Origin: Candidatus Poribacteria bacterium
Lineage (GTDB): Bacteria; Poribacteria; WGA-4E; WGA-3G
NCBI GenBank assembly: GCA_965198235.1
Contig: OZ240248.1
Coordinates: 352,001-416,000, forward strand
Direction: 5' to 3'
Length of the DNA: 64,000 nt
Positions 1 to 41,868 of the stretch are shown here, in pieces. The first letter of the stretch is position 1. Each line of letters begins with the position of its first letter. The translations under genes and the position numbers were made by a program. The notes under the pieces were generated by a model. That model was not told the origin of the DNA. It worked only from the letters and a program-made list of their open reading frames with translations, and did not search any database.

Positions 1-120
1 GTGCTCAAAAGGGTTCTGACTTCACCAGAAACCATCGTGGAATGAAATTAGGTTTCCTTAAATGGCATAATTTGTCTTTGCTTTACTTATGGAACGATGA
101 CCAAATTTAATAATTTAAAA
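1..120. repeat. Partial copy of a dispersed intergenic repeat (same family as 41894-42212)
   Basis: GACTTCACCAGAA (18-30) recurs at 42148-42160; GGCATAATTTGTCT(T/C)TGCTTTAC (64-86) recurs at 42043-42065. Confidence 0.7.
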
Positions 121-124
121 AACG

Positions 125-1519
125 ATGACCAAATTTAATAGTTTAAAGAACCCCATTGTTGCGATCGTCGGCAGACCGAATGTCGGGAAATCATCACTTT
201 TCAATCGAATCGCTGGAAATAGCCGTCAGCAGTCATCAATCAGCAGTCAGCAAGAACCGAGAGCCGAAAGCCGTCCCCCGCGCAAATACGCAGTCGTCCA
301 TGATACACCCGGTGTGACGCGCGACAGGAACTACGCTGACGTGGAATGGGCAGACCGCGCTTTTACCATTGTAGATACCGGCGGTTTGGACATCAATCCG
401 GACGACCGGCTTATCGATAATGTTCAATCGCAGGTGGATGTTGCCTTGGCTGAAGCGAGCCTCATCCTCTTTGTCGTTGATGCCCGAACTGGCATCATGC
501 CACACGATATGGTTGTCGTTGATAAACTCAGAGCTGCTGATAAACCTATCTTCCTCGTCGTCAATAAGGTAGATAGCGACCGATTTCACAATGAAGCTGC
601 CGAGTTTTACGCACTCGGATTCGCAGAGCCAATGTGGACATCGTGTGTCCAAAATGATGGGATTCGGGAACTACTCGACCGCGTCGTTGAAACCCTCCCA
701 GAGACCGACGAAACTGTCCACGACGCGCCTCCTACAATGAAAATCGCTATTGTTGGCAGACCGAATGTCGGGAAATCCTCGCTTATCAACAGTTTGTTAG
801 GTGAAGAGCGGATGATTGTCGATGACCGACCCGGGACTACGCGCGATGCGGTGAATATCCGAATCGTTCACGACAATATCCCTTTTGAAGTAGTTGATAC
901 GACGGGAATGCGGCGTAAATCTGCTATCAACGATGAACTTGAATCCGTAACCGTGCAACGTGCGATACACAGCATTCGCCAAAGCGACATCGCTGTACTC
1001 GTACTGGACGTAACCCAGGATGTCGCACAACAGGATAAGGCGATCGCCAATTTCATTGAACGGCAGGGGAAAGCCTCCGTTTTAGTCATGAACAAGTGGG
1101 ATCTAATCGATAAGGATAACACAACGCATCCGGCATTTATGGATGCGATAGATGTGCAACTCCCGCAACTCGGTTATGTCCCACGTGTTTTTGTTTCCGC
1201 TCTAAGTGGGCAACGCGTTACCCAAATATTGACGACTGCACTTGAGGTCTACCGTGAGTATTGTACGCACATCCCTACACCCGCACTCAACGACTTGCTT
1301 CTGGAGTTGCGCAATGCCCATCCACCCCCGCGGGTTAAAGGGGCGCGCCCTGCACTCAAGTATATCACGCAGATGGAGACTAAACCGCCCACTTTCTTAA
1401 TCTTCGGACGGAATGTCCATCGCGTGCAGCAGCCGTATGAGGCTTACCTCGTCAACAGTATTCGGAAGGAATTCGGATTTCACGGCACACCGATACGGAT
1501 TTTTTTTCGCAGATCATAA
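125..1519 (+). CDS. der: Ribosome biogenesis GTPase Der (EngA)
   Basis: Two GTPase domains (GRPNVGKSS twice, DTGG/DTTG, NKVD/NKWD) and KH-like C-terminus ending FGFHGTPIR. Confidence 0.97.
   Translation: MTKFNSLKNPIVAIVGRPNVGKSSLFNRIAGNSRQQSSISSQQEPRAESRPPRKYAVVHDTPGVTRDRNYADVEWADRAFTIVDTGGLDINPDDRLIDNVQSQVDVALAEASLILFVVDARTGIMPHDMVVVDKLRAADKPIFLVVNKVDSDRFHNEAAEFYALGFAEPMWTSCVQNDGIRELLDRVVETLPETDETVHDAPPTMKIAIVGRPNVGKSSLINSLLGEERMIVDDRPGTTRDAVNIRIVHDNIPFEVVDTTGMRRKSAINDELESVTVQRAIHSIRQSDIAVLVLDVTQDVAQQDKAIANFIERQGKASVLVMNKWDLIDKDNTTHPAFMDAIDVQLPQLGYVPRVFVSALSGQRVTQILTTALEVYREYCTHIPTPALNDLLLELRNAHPPPRVKGARPALKYITQMETKPPTFLIFGRNVHRVQQPYEAYLVNSIRKEFGFHGTPIRIFFRRS
218..273. repeat. Heptamer-type palindromic repeat fragment inside der
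   Basis: 218-249 matches intergenic 2674-2705 at 29/32 nt. Confidence 0.8.
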
Positions 1520-35983: not shown

Positions 35984-36284
35984 GTTGTTTTCACAGCAAG
36001 TTTTGGCTTGCATTTTTGAATATGGGCTTGCAAGCTTCACCCTACAATGCCAAAATTCAGTATCTCCTTTTATATTTTTGTGTCGTGACTCCTGTCTCAT
36101 CTGTCTACTGATATTTTATCACATTTCAGGGTAAAAGTCAAATTTTGTCTGCGTTTTACGGAGTGCCAACGGGAGCATAAAAGCCTTATGGTACATCTAT
36201 TTTGAACCTCTTAAAGTCGAAAATTATTAGTTGTAATCGGTTTGCATTTTGATAATTCATTCAATTGTGATATTATTGGAAATC

Positions 36285-37553
36285 ATGAAAGCATTTGCTA
36301 TTTTTCTATTTTGCGGTGCGCTGTTGCTCTCAGGTTGTGGGATATTTGCCACCAAGCCGATTCAAACCGAACCGCCGACAACTCCTGTAGACCCACTCGA
36401 AAGACTACACACCAATATTGATGCCGTTTTGGAGGAAGTGTTGTTCACAACTGCAAGCATCGGCATCAAGGTTGTTGCCGTTGAAACAGGGGAAGTGATT
36501 TACGAAAAAAATAGCCACAAGTTACACCACCCTGCCTCTACAACGAAACTCTTCACAGCAGCGACTGCTTTGGCGAAACTGGGGTCGGACTACCAATTTG
36601 AAACAACACTTTACGCTGATGCCGTTGTGAAGGGTGAAGTCGTAGGAAACATCTATCTAAAAGGCAGGGCTGACCCGGTGCTCCAACCTCAAGACATCGT
36701 GAAATTAAGCGATGCATTGCTTCAAATCGGTGTGAAGTCGATACAGGGTGACATCGTCGTTGACGAAACATATCTCGATGCCATTTGGGAAGGTCCGGGG
36801 TGGATGTGGGACGATAGACCGCTGTGGATCAGTGCTTTGAGTATCCGAGAAGTCGAACCCGATGCAAGCAAAATGAGCAGGGCACTTGCCTGTGGACATC
36901 TCTTGAAAACTGTGCTTATGGAAAAAGGCGTTAACGTAATGGGTGATGTAGTGCCAGGAACAGTCTCATCAGATGCACACAGCGTAGCGAAACATCTATC
37001 GCCGCCACTCGCCGACATTCTCAAACTGATGAACAAACCGAGTGACAATTGGATCGCTGAATTGATTTTCAAGACAATAGGTGCTGAAGTGATCGGTGAA
37101 CCGGGGACGTGGAAAAAAGGGAGAGAAGTTGTCACTGAGTTTTTGGCAGAAATCATGGAGGAACCGCCGATGCATCGGTTCGTTGACGGTTCTGGGCTCT
37201 CTCGGTACAATCTCCTCAACGCGGAATTGCTCACGAAGTTGCTCGTTTATATGTATCACAATTTTGAATTGATGCCGGAGTATCTGGCATCACTTCCGAT
37301 TGCTGGTGTCGATGGCACCTTGAAAAGTCGGATGCAAGGCGTGTCCGCCGAAAAGGTATTGCGTGCGAAAACGGGGACGTTAAGCGGTGTTTCTGCGCTT
37401 GCTGGCTACACCGTGACAGCAGACGATGAGGTGTTTGCGTTCGGCATTCTCATCAGCCATTATGTCGGTCCAGCAAGATCAGCGCGAAATATCCAAGATA
37501 AGATTGGGAATTATCTGACGGGGTTTAGTCGTCATTCTTCTATGAAGCGTTAG
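36285..37553 (+). CDS. dacB: D-Ala-D-Ala carboxypeptidase/endopeptidase (PBP4, peptidase S13), lipoprotein
   Basis: LSGC lipobox, PASTTK, SDN, DGSGLS, KTGTL. Confidence 0.92.
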   Translation: MKAFAIFLFCGALLLSGCGIFATKPIQTEPPTTPVDPLERLHTNIDAVLEEVLFTTASIGIKVVAVETGEVIYEKNSHKLHHPASTTKLFTAATALAKLGSDYQFETTLYADAVVKGEVVGNIYLKGRADPVLQPQDIVKLSDALLQIGVKSIQGDIVVDETYLDAIWEGPGWMWDDRPLWISALSIREVEPDASKMSRALACGHLLKTVLMEKGVNVMGDVVPGTVSSDAHSVAKHLSPPLADILKLMNKPSDNWIAELIFKTIGAEVIGEPGTWKKGREVVTEFLAEIMEEPPMHRFVDGSGLSRYNLLNAELLTKLLVYMYHNFELMPEYLASLPIAGVDGTLKSRMQGVSAEKVLRAKTGTLSGVSALAGYTVTADDEVFAFGILISHYVGPARSARNIQDKIGNYLTGFSRHSSMKR

Positions 37554-37615: not shown

Positions 37616-37658
37616 TTGACATATAGGTTTAAATACGCTATAATTAGGCTTAAATACG
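37616..37658 (+). promoter_or_regulatory. Consensus sigma70 promoter overlapped by a 14-bp direct-repeat operator candidate
   Basis: TTGACA-N17-TATAAT (37616-37644); TAGG(T/C)TTAAATACG at 37624 and 37645. Confidence 0.7.
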
Positions 37659-37898
37659 TTGTAGTCGTTGCAATTTTCAGATTGCTAGGTAGATTTATTG
37701 AAAGCCTGCCAGTTTTTGTCAACTTTTTTCTATATACCCATACTTGGGCTGGGCATGGTATACTGAGGGTGGTTTTGGAATGCCGAGCAAATAAGGAAGT
37801 AGATGTTAACAAAATGTCCTCGCCTATTTTATCATAGCAAAAAACTTATGTTCATGTAAGGTTAACATATTGCATTACGACAGAGGAAACCAGAGATT

Positions 37899-38645
37899 AT
37901 GTTAAGAGCATACCTCGGGGAATTTACCCCTTCATCTGAAATCGAAGATGCTGATGGATTGGACATGCTTGGACTTGATACATTGCCCCAGGAGCAACTT
38001 GCGCCACATGCGCCATCGGCAGGAGATATCGATGAATTTAGTCAGGCACTTGGAGTCCAAGAGCAAGCACCTGTCAAATTTAGCTCGTCACCGATACAAG
38101 AGAGTTCTGATACTACATCAGCCATAGCAGGGCAGAGGAACTATGCGACTCAAGAAGTCAGTAGATTTCAATTGCTTGTTGCTGCTGTGGGCGCGCTTGT
38201 CAACGTAACTGAAGATCGACTCTTAACTACGCTGACAGAAAATGATCATCAAGGGCTTGTCACAGCATTAGACAAGTTAATCGATGTTGTTGGTGAAGAT
38301 GAAAATCATCTTTTTGCTCCATTGATGCATTTCATCGGTAAACTCATCGAGAAGTATGAAGAAACATCTAATGTGACACATCAATATGAATCCTTGGACA
38401 GAGAAGAAGTTGAGAATGAATTGCCTTTACCTGCTCAAGACCTTGAAGCCGCATATAGTGATGCCGAACCCGAGTACACGCTTGATATGCTCATCTCCGT
38501 AAATCCTGACTACGCAGGCCTTAACGAGGAAGGAACTGTCAGTTTACGTGTACCTGCGCGCGGTCTTGAGGCAGCTTATGGCAATGATGAACCCGAATAT
38601 ACCCTCGACATGCTTACCTCGGCAAATCCTGAGTATGATGTATAG
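37899..38645 (+). CDS. Acidic chimeric antitoxin-like protein with duplicated C-terminal motif
   Basis: HigA-like LDKLIDVVGEDENH...IGKLIEKYE; LEAAY..EPEYTLDML.S.NP.Y twice. Confidence 0.7.
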   Translation: MLRAYLGEFTPSSEIEDADGLDMLGLDTLPQEQLAPHAPSAGDIDEFSQALGVQEQAPVKFSSSPIQESSDTTSAIAGQRNYATQEVSRFQLLVAAVGALVNVTEDRLLTTLTENDHQGLVTALDKLIDVVGEDENHLFAPLMHFIGKLIEKYEETSNVTHQYESLDREEVENELPLPAQDLEAAYSDAEPEYTLDMLISVNPDYAGLNEEGTVSLRVPARGLEAAYGNDEPEYTLDMLTSANPEYDV

Positions 38646-39339
38646 ACCCCCCAAACCTATCGCAGAGCGCGACGTAATTCTCGTTTATTTACTCGGAAAT
38701 TCCCAGTCCTTTCTCAATAGAGTTCAGGTATACCTTAGGGCGAGAGAAAAATTAGTTGGCCTGCCTCCTGAAGATCTGCAACGCCATCAAAAACGGATAG
38801 ACGATACGCTTGAGGCGAATTCGGATGATATACAAGCACTCTTGGAGTTGGCAGTGCTTCTTGAGATGCAGGATGATCTTCCTGAAGCAACAAACGCACT
38901 TGAGGATGTACTTGAGATACTCTCAGAACGTCAGGAGGACAGTTCTGATGTTTACATACCGCTAGGATCTCTGTATGAACGCCAAGAACGATACGACGAG
39001 GCACGCCATGCTTATGAGGAAGGAGAAAAGTCAGGATTAAAACTTAGACCTGCGATTTGCCTGCGAAAATTACCGCCGACTTATTATAAGGAATTCCTCG
39101 TTTGCGGCATAAGTTCACAAATAACGCGGAGCGAAGCGAATTTTGATGAAGTTGTTGGAAACACAGTTGATAATAGTGTAAAACTTAATGCTAAACAATC
39201 TGTGATTCGAGTCGGCTTCTTAGGGCGAGTCCGAACGGAGGAAATAGTCGGAAGTATAGGTGAGATATCAACTGTTCGCCACAGGCGTTTATTGAAAAAA
39301 TTAAGTGAGTATTTGGTTAATTCAAAACATCGCGTGTAG
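38635..39339 (+). CDS. PemK/MazF-family toxin with internal TPR insertion
   Basis: RDVILV...KLRPAICL...FLVCGISSQ...SVIRVGFL...IVGSIGEIS; start overlaps the upstream stop. Confidence 0.75.
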   Translation: MMYRPPKPIAERDVILVYLLGNSQSFLNRVQVYLRAREKLVGLPPEDLQRHQKRIDDTLEANSDDIQALLELAVLLEMQDDLPEATNALEDVLEILSERQEDSSDVYIPLGSLYERQERYDEARHAYEEGEKSGLKLRPAICLRKLPPTYYKEFLVCGISSQITRSEANFDEVVGNTVDNSVKLNAKQSVIRVGFLGRVRTEEIVGSIGEISTVRHRRLLKKLSEYLVNSKHRV

Positions 39340-39630
39340 TGTTTCAAACAGTCGTTTTACCGTTCCAAATTTCAATTGGATTGTAGTAGAATTTCCTCTT
39401 CTACTTTACTCACAACTACCATAGGAGAGTTGGGCTTTGTGATGCATTGCATGAGATAAAATGAAGTGCAAATTGCTGTCTGGTTTGAATCTCCGAGTAG
39501 AAATTGATAGTCGTAAATACCGCCATGCCCCATTCGCTCACACACAATTGTTCCTACTTGAAATCGGTGTCATCAAGCGGACTTGATCCCCGAAAACGGC
39601 ATGATGTGAGACACAACATCAAAGGTAACT

Positions 39631-41040
39631 GTGAACGCAAAAACGCTAATTGAAATCATAGAAAATATCAGTAATCTGCAGAAAGTTGGATCAGTAGCCG
39701 AAACTGTGCAAAAGGAACTGCAGAACACTCAATTGTCTCTGATAGACAGAGCGATAATTGATGCCTATCTGTTGCAACGGGATGGAAAAATTGCGGATGC
39801 CATGGAAAAGTGGCAATCCATCGTAAATATTGCAGAAGGAATAGATAATGAACTCGCTTCCTATGCTTGGTTTTCCATCGGCGGTCTCTTGTCGGATAAC
39901 AATCAAGAAGATGCCTGTCTCGCTTACGATAACGCGATTAGCCTTAAGCCGGATAATGCCGTCTACTACAACAATCGAGGAGCCACAAAATCACTTTTAG
40001 AACAATATGAGTCCGCTATTTCTGATTATAATGAGGCGATACGTCTGAATCCCGAGTATGTGGACGCTTATTACAATAGAGGATGGGCAAGAAGCGAACT
40101 CCATCAATACGAATCCGCAGTTAACGACTATAATGAGGTGATACGCCTGAATCCTGAGTATACTGATGCCTACTACAACCGTGCGAGAGCGAAAAATAGG
40201 CTCAAGCACCATGAGGCTGCAATCGCCGATTATGACGAAGTCCTGCGTCTAAAACCGGATTATGCAGAAGCTTACAGTAATCGAGGGATAGCAAAAGGGA
40301 CGTTGGGGCACCATGAGGCTGCGATTGCTGATTTTGACGAAAGTATAAAACTCAATCCGGATGGTGCCCATGCCTATTTTATGCAAGGGCATGCAAAGGA
40401 TGTCTTGGAACGTTATGAGGAAGCAATTGTTGACTTTGATGAAGGTATAAAACGCAAACCAGGTGATGTTTACGCCTACTTTAGGCGTGGCTCAGCAAAG
40501 ATTAGATTAGAATACTATAAGACTGCAATTATTGATTTTGATGAGGTCATTCGGCTTAAACCAGATTTTGCGCAAGCTTATTTCATGCGTGGACGTGCGA
40601 AACTTAAATTAGAACGTTATGAGGGCGCGATTGCTGATTTTGATAAAAGCATTGAACTCAAACCGGATTTTCCTGAAACCTACTTCTTACGTGGCTATGC
40701 CAAACATGAACTAAAATGCTATGAAGCTGCGATTGCTGATTTTGATAAAAGCATTGAACTCAAACCAGATGACGCTGAAGCCTATAACAATCGCGGTTTT
40801 TCAAAAATTAAGTTAGATCGGACTGAGTCAGCTCTTATTGACTGTGACGAAGCGATTCGTCTAAACCCATCCTTGGCTGAAGCTTATCACACCCGAGGCG
40901 AAGCGAATGCCCTCTTGGAAAGAATTCAAGAAGCAAAAACGGATTTCCAGAAAGCCTTGGAGTTAGCAGAACAAATCGACAACCAAGATCTCAAAACTGA
41001 GATTGAGGATTCGCTTCAAGAACTTAACAACGCCGAGTAG
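39631..41040 (+). CDS. Tetratricopeptide repeat protein
   Basis: About 11 tandem 34-aa repeats (AYYNRG...AIADYDE.I.L.P). Confidence 0.93.
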   Translation: MNAKTLIEIIENISNLQKVGSVAETVQKELQNTQLSLIDRAIIDAYLLQRDGKIADAMEKWQSIVNIAEGIDNELASYAWFSIGGLLSDNNQEDACLAYDNAISLKPDNAVYYNNRGATKSLLEQYESAISDYNEAIRLNPEYVDAYYNRGWARSELHQYESAVNDYNEVIRLNPEYTDAYYNRARAKNRLKHHEAAIADYDEVLRLKPDYAEAYSNRGIAKGTLGHHEAAIADFDESIKLNPDGAHAYFMQGHAKDVLERYEEAIVDFDEGIKRKPGDVYAYFRRGSAKIRLEYYKTAIIDFDEVIRLKPDFAQAYFMRGRAKLKLERYEGAIADFDKSIELKPDFPETYFLRGYAKHELKCYEAAIADFDKSIELKPDDAEAYNNRGFSKIKLDRTESALIDCDEAIRLNPSLAEAYHTRGEANALLERIQEAKTDFQKALELAEQIDNQDLKTEIEDSLQELNNAE

Positions 41041-41088: not shown

Positions 41089-41868
41089 TCAATCAAAACG
41101 CGACGTAATATCGGGTGGTGGTTCTCCCACGGCAGACTCGCCATCCCGCAACAACGGCTCTGCATTGCCCCACAAGCGGCTTCCATCATGCGACAGAAGC
41201 GGCTCCGCCGAATACTGAGCAAGATAGGCGCGCCGTAGGTTGTTCGTGTAGTTCGTGCCGCTGCAGTGGAAATTGACACTCGTAAACGCCACAATGCTCC
41301 CCGCAGGCACGATGGCAGGCACACCCTTTTCCGGTCCAAAATAGCCCACCATATCGTTACTTTCATCGTCGCGAATGTGCTTTACCCACGAACGGACACC
41401 GATGTGGGAAAACGGCATCACGGAGACCGTCCCATTCTCTTCAGACATATCGTCAAGGGCACACCAACAGGTGAGGTACGGCTTGTGATCGGGATAGCCG
41501 ACGTAACCCGAATCCTGGTGCCAACTGAACTTCATTCCCTCTTCTGCTCCTTTGACGACGTACTGTTCCCAGAAGAGATACGCCGTATCGCCTAAGGTGG
41601 CGCGGCAGACATCTGCCATTAGGTCGCTGAACAGAAATTCGCGAAGTTTCGGCTGTTTCCTGAAGCAGTTTGAGACGAAATACCGCTTGTGACGATGATT
41701 GAGACCGAGGACATCCGTGTCCTGCCGATCCATCTCGGCATCCATCTGACCGATAAAAGTTCCGCATTCACCGCGGAGCAGCTCCAGAAGCGATTCTGGG
41801 ATAACATTCTCTAAAATGCAATAGCCTTCCTCTTGGAATTGCTGTTTCTGGGCATCGGTTATGTTCAT
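41089..41868 (-). CDS. PhyH family dioxygenase
   Basis: WHQDSGY, WCALDD, AGSIVAF...FHCSG.N. Confidence 0.9.
   Translation of the reverse strand: MNITDAQKQQFQEEGYCILENVIPESLLELLRGECGTFIGQMDAEMDRQDTDVLGLNHRHKRYFVSNCFRKQPKLREFLFSDLMADVCRATLGDTAYLFWEQYVVKGAEEGMKFSWHQDSGYVGYPDHKPYLTCWCALDDMSEENGTVSVMPFSHIGVRSWVKHIRDDESNDMVGYFGPEKGVPAIVPAGSIVAFTSVNFHCSGTNYTNNLRRAYLAQYSAEPLLSHDGSRLWGNAEPLLRDGESAVGEPPPDITSRFD

Follow-up and report, generated by a model that had tools for sequence, protein, structure and literature searches.

The locus described here raises two questions: can a toxin of the MazF/PemK family carry a folded module of tetratricopeptide repeats (TPRs) inside its barrel, and what would such a module do? 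It lies in a stretch of 64,000 nucleotides (nt) of the Candidatus Poribacteria contig OZ240248.1 (GCA_965198235.1, positions 352,001-416,000 of the forward strand), which is the whole of the DNA analysed and is called the window below; positions are those of the window. MazF toxins are among the best-studied bacterial RNases, and their β1-β2 loop closes over RNA and competes with the antitoxin. The initial annotation of the window proposed that one open reading frame (ORF), P0001, encodes a MazF/PemK toxin with a TPR module in exactly this loop. AlphaFold2 modelling, fold searches and natural homologues without the insert bear this out: as modelled, P0001 is a MazF/PemK-fold protein whose β1-β2 loop is replaced by a TPR-like helical module. 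This domain-inserted architecture is conserved, and the full-text literature searched, which leaves most subscription journals outside its coverage, yielded no account of a domain inserted into MazF/PemK. P0001 is the second of three co-oriented ORFs. We put at about 0.65 the probability of the explanation as a whole, namely that the locus is a chromosomal MazF-family toxin-antitoxin pair of a sponge-symbiotic poribacterium with a linked third gene. The ORFs and the parts of the toxin are as follows (aa, amino acids).

37899..38645, + strand: P0002, putative antitoxin, 248 aa, no known family
38635..39339, + strand: P0001, MazF/PemK-fold toxin with TPR insertion, 234 aa, assigned by fold and homology
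39631..41040, + strand: P0003, large TPR protein, 469 aa, about 10 TPRs, probable third gene of the module
38671..38694, + strand: predicted strand β1 of the MazF barrel in P0001, residues 13-20, E-R-D-V-I-L-V (AlphaFold2, conservation)
38686..39039, + strand: inserted helical module of P0001, residues 18-135, six predicted helices forming three TPR-like hairpins (AlphaFold2, Pfam, VIA-align)
39037..39318, + strand: rest of the predicted MazF barrel and C-terminal helix, residues 135-228 (PemK profile, hhalign, paralogue)
39046-39048 and 39112-39117, + strand: codons of the putative active-site residues R138 and S160/S161

In Pfam, residues 67-129 of P0001 match TPR_12 (E 3.4e-9, 37.2 bits against a cut-off of 30.1), and TPR_2 is reached as well (28.5 bits against 27). 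The insert, initially described as about 95 aa with two TPR-like repeats, is indeed built of TPRs, but it is really about 114-118 aa long (residues 18-135) and comprises three hairpins, of which Pfam sees the last two. All the motifs that had been quoted as the PemK pattern are present in P0001, but as a sequence-profile match the complete pattern stays below threshold: the C-terminal 105 aa taken alone align with positions 20-108 of the 109 in PF02452 at E 0.043 and 14.5 bits, against a cut-off of 23.1. Searches of PDB sequences with the whole of P0001 (phmmer) and with the family profile returned only TPR proteins and chance matches. Since the profile cut-off is not reached, the membership of P0001 in MazF/PemK rests on transitive homology and on the fold.

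The AlphaFold2 model of P0001, computed from a 66-sequence alignment, has a predicted local distance difference test score (pLDDT) of 84.4 and a predicted template modelling score (pTM) of 0.73. It begins with a strand (residues 13-20), continues with six helices between residues 23 and 132, and then returns to the strands of the barrel (135-145, 153-160, 172-174, 189-200 and 207-210) and a final helix (213-228). In a Foldseek search of the PDB, all 11 matches at E<=1e-3 were MazF chains, belonging to MazF-mt3, mt1, mt9 and S. aureus MazF, with target-normalised template modelling (TM) scores of 0.54-0.68. VIA-align, a search independent of Foldseek, placed MazF-mt3 (8zws_A) at the top with a Z-score of 13.3 and a root-mean-square deviation (rmsd) of 2.6 over 103 of 105 residues, followed by S. 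aureus MazF (Z 11.9), MazF-mt1 (11.8), MazF-mt9 (11.4) and Kid (1m1f, 10.3). As the alignment with 8zws_A runs over 7..229 of the model, segments on either side of the insert make up the barrel. Other MazF chains likewise align with the model from residue 7 on. The idea had been expected to fail if the flanking segments did not form a PemK fold; in the model, β1 packs into the barrel and the MazF alignment spans the insert. Strand β1 is also well conserved, with a mean pairwise identity of 0.78, D13 being present in 62 and I15 in 65 of the 66 aligned rows. Residues 34-138 align in VIA-align with three-repeat TPR domains (Z about 11, rmsd 2.6-3.1).

Natural homologues that lack the insert directly mark, in sequence alignment, the point of insertion. 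In P0072, E-R-D-V-I-L-V is followed by four residues and K-L-R-P-A-I-C-L, which reads as P0001 without its insert; the same loop between the DVILV strand and K-x-R-P has 8-9 residues in the toxins of loci L005 and L009 and about 118 in P0001. L009 is a second, compact pair in the window's own genome; its antitoxin has 110 aa and a single EPEYT motif, and its toxin, which lacks the insert, has 116 aa. This toxin passes PF02452 (28.0 bits against the cut-off of 23.1, E 2.8e-6, profile positions 3-107 of 109) and is 39% identical to residues 135-230 of P0001 (E 7e-20). Aligned by hhalign, the MazF-TPR family and 40 short relatives match with a probability of 100 and E 5e-40, and when the profile of the short relatives was run against the PDB, the top 11 rows were all MazF, PemK or EndoA with full-length alignments, at weak E-values of 0.005-0.044. 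Insert-less MazF proteins of Poribacteria (L009, L005, P0072 and about 100 representatives) thus belong to the same clade as P0001, with a core identity of 39-61% and the same active-site motifs, and differ from it in having 4-9 residues in place of the TPR module. Their antitoxins carry the same helical scaffold with an EPEYT-type motif and may be small, as in L009. Two natural chimeras were also seen. In P0068 (166 aa, on a 1547-nt contig), β1 and the initial TPR helices of the toxin run on into the C-terminus of the large TPR protein, which resembles a deletion between TPR repeats; in P0230 (194 aa), an antitoxin-like acidic motif is fused in front of an insert-less MazF.

The architecture is found in other genomes as well and is not confined to a single assembly. 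A word-indexed homologue search with P0001 gave 69 matches, of which 61 are full-length (222-251 aa, 46-95% identity) and four have 128-132 aa. Of 176 Poribacteria genomes, 14 encode full-length MazF-TPR proteins, defined as extending from profile position <=7 to >=224, at 16 places in total; these genomes belong to a single family-level group, and insert-less matches are far more widespread. A collection of species-representative genomes contained seven MazF-TPR loci, all in assemblies from uncultured organisms and six of them from Poribacteria. An exhaustive search of 1.84 billion representatives gave 242 matches at E<=1e-3. Among the 150 matches listed, in which long proteins match essentially in their TPR part only, about 10-13 are clusters that carry the insert, with identities as low as 36%. 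Each of the 13 insert-bearing representatives inspected keeps β1, the helical insert with its L-Y-E-x-Q signatures and K-x-R-P. The insert comes close to the core in conservation (mean pairwise identity of 0.56 versus 0.67 over 66 rows), with E77, Q79, E115 and Q117 near-invariant. A maximum-likelihood tree of the MazF core (118 columns, with those of the insert removed and many forks unresolved) implies four changes of insert state, of which the starred branches force only 1-2; its outgroup branch of 3.1 makes the rooting unreliable. A single clade of all 34 insert-bearing rows was not rejected by the approximately unbiased test (log-likelihood difference 2.3, p 0.46), and one acquisition of the insert is compatible with these sequence data.

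Is the toxin likely to be active? Every one of the 66 aligned rows of the family has K136, R138, C142, C157, D171, S189, I191 and R192, and position 160 is Ser in 48 rows and Thr in 18. In a hidden Markov model (HMM) alignment with S. aureus MazF, the Arg of the family's K-x-R-P (R138) falls on the Arg of an R-P dipeptide and the first Ser of G-I-S-S-Q (S160) falls on a Thr; for the assignment of R138 and S160, we take the residue numbering of S. aureus MazF to be equivalent to that of B. subtilis MazF. One study (PMC11394972) assigns the role of general acid/base in MazF to Arg29 in E. coli and Arg25 in B. subtilis, and the stabilisation of the transition state to Thr52 and Thr48, respectively. 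We infer from this alignment that P0001 is an active endoribonuclease. As a separate observation, the two cysteines C142 and C157, whose invariance distinguishes the P0001 clade from MazF/PemK/Kid, flank the active-site strands, and C157 is invariant in the 40 insert-less relatives as well; the two might have a redox or metal role.

The gene upstream of the toxin has the position and the composition of an antitoxin gene. As in MazF/PemK/Kid systems, where an acidic antitoxin is encoded just upstream in an overlapping gene, the ATGATG start of P0001 at 38635 overlaps the end of P0002 (stop at 38645) by 11 nt; the overlap is 14 nt in relatives. P0002 (248 aa) has a net charge of -38 and a pI of 4.05. 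Its family comprises 138 related clusters at E<=0.01 or better; the label 'DUF1778 family' that JGI gives to three of the related clusters was not reproduced by Pfam. The AlphaFold2 model has a pLDDT of 59 overall and 78-92 for residues 90-160: residues 1-78 are disordered, about 85-160 are confidently helical and the C-terminal third is uncertain, the helical scaffold being residues 74-168. The best score in the ESM Atlas, 0.86, is below the meaningful level. The most conserved part of the family is a tandem pair of motifs of about 30 aa, G-L-E-A-A-Y..E-P-E-Y-T-L-D-M-L..N-P-D-Y, in which G222, L223, A225-Y227 and D230-E233 of the second repeat are nearly invariant.

38421..38516, + strand: antitoxin repeat 1, residues 175-206; E190, Y193 and T194 invariant; modelled on toxin protomer 2
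38544..38642, + strand: antitoxin repeat 2, residues 216-248, C-terminal; Y234 invariant; modelled on toxin protomer 1

We predicted the complex of two toxin copies with residues 165-248 of P0002 as three chains, both proteins with alignments that we supplied ourselves; the homodimer was an assumption of the input, and the antitoxin fragment alone was scored. The complex scored 0.82, 0.78 and 0.80, and the controls 0.16, 0.44 and 0.00. In the calibration of this score, 116 of 157 solved complexes attained the mark, as did 2 of 215 mismatched pairs; these counts hold only roughly for an input of three chains with alignments of our own. At least 93% of the contacts were common to the runs, and the pLDDT of the partner was at least 78. 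MazE-MazF complexes are solved, and likeness to them may contribute to the score. On the antitoxin, the modelled interface comprises residues 175-195 and 197-206 of repeat 1 and 216-236 and 238-248 of repeat 2; on the toxin, it comprises residues 4-9, 135-140 (with K136 and R138), 156-162 (with the Ser/Thr) and 183-209, and the insert takes part with its edge only (15-31 and 99-102). The model supports binding of the C-terminal repeats of P0002 to the toxin dimer, with one motif over each active site. In MazE-MazF structures there is one MazE C-terminal tail per dimer, whereas in the model two tandem motifs of one chain serve one protomer each.

These data speak against the idea, implied initially, that the insert gates the binding of the antitoxin, since the same EPEYT-type motif pairs with insert-less toxins (once in the L009 antitoxin, twice in that of L005) and the modelled interface lies mainly on the MazF core. 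Because insert-less relatives use the same antitoxin motif, the TPR module is probably not the antitoxin receptor. Toxin subfamilies carry co-varying variants of the antitoxin motif.

Where did the insert come from? Nearly all Poribacteria genomes contain one ORF of about 1045-1100 aa that the family profile matches over insert positions 42-130 only, at E about 1e-17; this ORF, a Spermine_synth domain followed by TPRs, is also present in genomes that have no MazF-TPR gene. In the window's genome it is the following.

G000:C1, about 343.6-345.6 kb, about 7 kb before the window start: L010, Spermine_synth (PF01564) and TPR ORF, about 1045 aa

L010 lies about 45 kb 5' of the MazF-TPR locus, and Pfam finds its Spermine_synth domain at E 4.5e-21, followed by the TPRs. 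Against the family profile it scores 64 bits, and the runner-up among the TPRs of that genome reaches 26.5 bits. Residues 46-132 of P0001 are 44% identical to its C-terminal TPRs over 87 aa (BLASTP, E 7e-18), including the L-Y-E-x-Q of both repeats. The spermidine-synthase-like protein differs from P0001 in having an enzyme domain and no MazF part, and helix 1 of the insert is outside the match. As its TPR is the best match by far and is conserved in nearly all Poribacteria, the sequence comparison makes it the likely donor, or the closest paralogue, of the insert. The downstream TPR protein P0003 was considered as donor and rejected, its BLASTP match reaching E 0.052 only.

P0003 itself consists of about 10 TPRs after a conserved N-terminal domain of 110 aa (39631-39960), for which Pfam has no family. 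That a large TPR gene follows on the same strand, as had been pointed out initially, is confirmed, and the linkage is non-random: such a gene, with the N-terminal domain, comes next at 15 of the 16 full-length MazF-TPR places, versus 3 of the 35 insert-less places listed (all in the same family-level group), counts that are suggestive rather than statistical as related genomes are not independent, and to which four other insert-less places may add, since their genomes have an unlisted match to the N-terminal domain that could be adjacent. P0003 starts 291 nt after the end of P0001, and a terminator scan found no terminator-like site in this gap; in some relatives only 8 nt separate the toxin stop from the TPR gene, or the two overlap by 4 nt. 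P0002, P0001 and P0003 look like one three-gene module. The family of the N-terminal domain is itself multi-copy in Poribacteria, with up to six matches per genome at E<=1e-10.

We surveyed 30 loci (within the site set L027-L056) that have orthologues or paralogues of the P0003 N-terminal domain, all in the same family-level group. What precedes the TPR gene was classified with local HMMs and by reading, with Pfam run on representatives only, as follows.

11 of 30 loci: MazF-TPR
3 of 30 loci: insert-less toxin of the same clade
5 of 30 loci: ordinary 120-aa PemK toxin (example E 4.7e-22)
4 of 30 loci: tandem-fused double MazF (examples E 2.6e-22 and 1.2e-30)
2 of 30 loci: HigB toxin (example E 7.7e-23), then its antitoxin
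2 of 30 loci: Peptidase_S13 directly, no cassette
3 of 30 loci: nothing recognised, or contig end

All antitoxins at this site share a helical scaffold segment, D-K-L-I-D-x-V-G-E-D-E-N-H..F-I-G-x-L-I-E-K-Y-E, and differ in their tandem C-terminal motifs; where the toxin is an ordinary or double MazF, the antitoxin has basic repeats of the R-L-K-L-A-D-L-L type. The exchanged cassettes and the common antitoxin scaffold therefore mark the site between Peptidase_S13 and the TPR gene as a hot spot for toxin cassettes. A third MazF-TPR subfamily (L058-L060) sits at another site, between genes for PqqD (E 2e-11) and an ABC ATPase (E 3.1e-35), with its own variant of the antitoxin and again a large TPR gene. 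The recurrence of the triad at this second, unrelated site counts against an explanation of the linkage purely by the site. The double MazF proteins (L006:5242-5946, L007:5004-5708, L034, L039, L045 and L051) are an observation in their own right. They are single-chain tandem fusions of 234-251 aa in which Pfam detects PemK at E 1.2e-30 and 2.6e-22, in two stretches each; the second half has R-A in place of R-P, and the scaffold antitoxin that accompanies them bears a pair of basic repeats of the R-L-K-L-A-D-L-L type. Immediately 5' of the double MazF, L006 and L007 have a truncated EPEYT antitoxin as well as a remnant of the N-terminus of MazF-TPR.

In the window, the module is flanked by two genes and preceded by a promoter-like site.

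36249-37553: Peptidase_S13 (DacB-like) gene, E 3e-88, upstream flank
37616..37644, + strand: promoter-like site, TTGACA-17 nt-TATAAT, 255 nt 5' of the antitoxin start
41089-41868, minus strand: PhyH dioxygenase gene, E 2.1e-21, downstream flank

The site at 37616-37644, in the intergenic region 5' of the antitoxin gene, is a perfect sigma-70 consensus (12 of 12 positions). Promoter-like sites are not enriched overall (10, compared to 8.5 ± 2.7 in shuffled sequences), and only this perfect match is notable. The locus is present in RNA libraries: four sponge metatranscriptome runs contain 65-89% of its sampled words, an observation from assembled contigs of one study, which do not show strand, transcript starts or a single transcript and may include carried-over DNA. 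The contigs match most pieces at >=99% identity, cover the genes and bridge both junctions. Record 2 of run X1 (37647-38935) begins 3 nt after the -10 hexamer, which is a weak hint only; record 26 of run X4 (38053-39433) spans the antitoxin-toxin junction and the whole toxin ORF, and record 4 of X1 (38988-40474) bridges the toxin into the TPR gene. In run X1, the word depth was 5 for the flanking piece versus 60 and 31 for the pieces of the operon.

The mechanism that we propose can be put together from these parts. The insert would have been copied, as seems likely, from the C-terminal TPRs of the spermidine-synthase-like protein. The toxin dimer would cleave RNA as a MazF/PemK-fold endoribonuclease through R138 and S160, and the acidic, largely disordered P0002, encoded by the overlapping upstream gene, would neutralise it, with the two tandem EPEYT-type motifs of one antitoxin chain each plugging the active site of one protomer. 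The TPR module would form one wall of the active-site cleft and might offer a docking or regulatory surface through which the RNase is linked with a basic ligand or with the large TPR protein encoded downstream. Helices 3-6 of the insert have a net charge of -16 in P0001 (family median -10, pI 4.3) and the MazF core has +7 (pI 9.9), which makes an RNA-binding extension unlikely. Hence a docking or regulatory surface appears the most likely role, and the large TPR protein is the first candidate partner. A lead in this direction comes from E/Q pairs that occur at equivalent positions of both insert repeats and are shared with the donor TPR; by the geometry of TPRs, they presumably face the concave groove.

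Several points weigh against this explanation of the locus. Whole P0001 has no PemK match in Pfam at E<=1 and finds TPR families only, as it does in NCBIfam, and the curated cut-off of PF02452 is not reached by P0001 itself. P0002 matches no family at threshold in Pfam or NCBIfam and has no recognisable DNA-binding domain, for which reason autoregulation of the classical type II kind is unsupported; no operator-like inverted repeats of >=10 nt are found 5' of its gene, and Foldseek finds no fold match in the PDB for its helical core at E<=1e-3. The direction of TPR transfer is suggested by distribution only, and the core tree cannot separate gain from loss of the insert. One insert-bearing copy, L024 (G066:C1:4204936-4208676), lacks a TPR gene on its 3' side. 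Cassettes of other types, too, can precede the large TPR gene, and at 2 of 30 loci it is preceded by none, so that the linkage may be partly a property of the site. The interdependence of related genomes and the nature of the RNA evidence, given with the respective results, belong on the same side.

The simplest alternative would be that P0001 is an artefact of assembly or annotation, a chimeric ORF made of a TPR fragment and a MazF gene. Chimeric variants do exist in databases, P0068 being one, but this explanation of P0001 is refuted for all practical purposes by the 61 full-length clusters from several sources, by the 14 genomes, among them several single-contig assemblies, by the RNA-library contig that independently spans the whole ORF (X4 record 26) and by the packing of β1 into the modelled barrel. 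A quite improbable alternative is an ordinary two-gene MazEF whose toxin tolerates the TPR as a passenger or is simply stabilised by it, and which has the large TPR gene as a neighbour only by virtue of a recombination hot spot. It would account for the insert-less relatives that have the same type of antitoxin at the same site (L005, L033 and L042), for the appearance of such rows among insert-bearing ones in the tree, which is compatible with loss of the insert while the gene is kept, and for the TPR gene that comes after other cassettes or with none. A passenger would not be expected to be kept in every subfamily down to 36% identity, at an identity of 0.56 versus 0.67 for the core and with four near-invariant positions; and the recurrence of the gene triad at a second, unrelated site, together with the contrast in adjacency between 15 of 16 and 3 of 35 places, argues against chance. 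We regard as similarly improbable a lid acting in cis, whereby the acidic TPR would cover the basic RNA groove, partly inhibit the toxin or filter its specificity from within, and leave it attenuated with no need of an external partner. The opposite charges of the insert and the core, the likewise acidic antitoxin, and the bordering of the modelled cleft by insert residues 15-31 and 99-102 speak for such a lid. Moreover, the insert replaces a loop that modulates antitoxin binding and activity in M. tuberculosis MazFs, as described in PMC11394972. Against it stand the separate, conserved antitoxin that was retained in all loci examined and the conserved E/Q pairs of both repeats, which are common to a donor TPR that has no RNase to cover.

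Two further readings give the TPR a ligand, and both are unlikely, though they deserve consideration. In one of them, which follows the initial proposal of a sensor-gated or partner-targeted endoribonuclease, P0001 would be an anti-phage abortive-infection RNase that is freed or switched on when its TPR insert detects a phage protein. TPR sensors occur in defence systems, L024 with its antitoxin is located inside an Hma operon between the PADLOC families HmaC (AAA+ ATPase, E 3.2e-26) and HmaB (methylase, E 4.6e-99; DUF1156 E 7.3e-26), and the site between Peptidase_S13 and the TPR gene swaps toxin cassettes as defence islands do. However, PADLOC-DB 2.0 has no family for P0001, P0002 or P0003 at E<=0.01, and the Pfam family TPR-S (PF20308) matches P0001 below its cut-off (E 0.042, 14.9 bits against 27.6). 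The neighbours in the window are housekeeping genes (Peptidase_S13 and PhyH), no phage or mobile genes were seen among the loci inspected, and most MazF-TPR copies are syntenic, at about 45-52 kb from the same marker gene, which suggests vertical inheritance. The closest relative of the insert is also part of an enzyme of housekeeping type. The other reading, which we consider just as tentative, extends the proposed docking surface to a three-part, ligand-gated RNase: the TPR would be a lid or receptor that couples the toxin to the large TPR protein or to the basic ligand of the spermidine-synthase TPR, and the antitoxin would be a swappable platform, in which a shared scaffold with toxin-specific motifs is reused for MazF-TPR, plain MazF, double MazF and HigB.

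The explanation that we prefer, a MazF-family toxin-antitoxin pair with a linked third gene, can also be compared with known systems. With MazF/PemK/Kid (PF02452), P0001 shares the SH3-like barrel and C-terminal helix (Z 10-13 over 100-113 aligned residues), the Arg of K-x-R-P and the active-site Ser/Thr. It differs in that a folded, six-helix module of about 115 aa takes the place of the loop and in that the Pfam model misses the whole protein. Tripartite toxin-antitoxin-chaperone (TAC) systems have a SecB-like third gene. The likeness is one of layout only: the toxin gene is followed by a third, co-oriented gene, and the antitoxin is a long protein with much disorder. In the present locus the product of the third gene is a TPR protein instead of SecB, the gene also occurs without any cassette, and no chaperone-addiction segment was identified in this comparison of layout. 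Long β1-β2 loops that modulate antitoxin binding are described for MazF-mt1, mt3 and mt9 in PMC11394972.

A folded protein-interaction domain placed exactly in the gating loop of MazF and kept down to 36% identity amounts to a natural experiment in wiring a toxin gate to a partner. Should the TPR turn out to be a receptor, the family would represent a new type of trigger for type II toxins that is independent of antitoxin degradation, and its compact scaffold would lend itself to the engineering of ligand-gated RNases. Modular evolution of antitoxins, in which one scaffold carries exchangeable tandem neutralising motifs, is illustrated by the locus as well. Type II toxin-antitoxin genes, including mazF-mazE, are reported to be enriched in sponge metagenomes (PMC9531527), and the present locus connects one such pair with 'eukaryote-like' TPR proteins, a prominent feature of sponge symbionts (PMC3909097).

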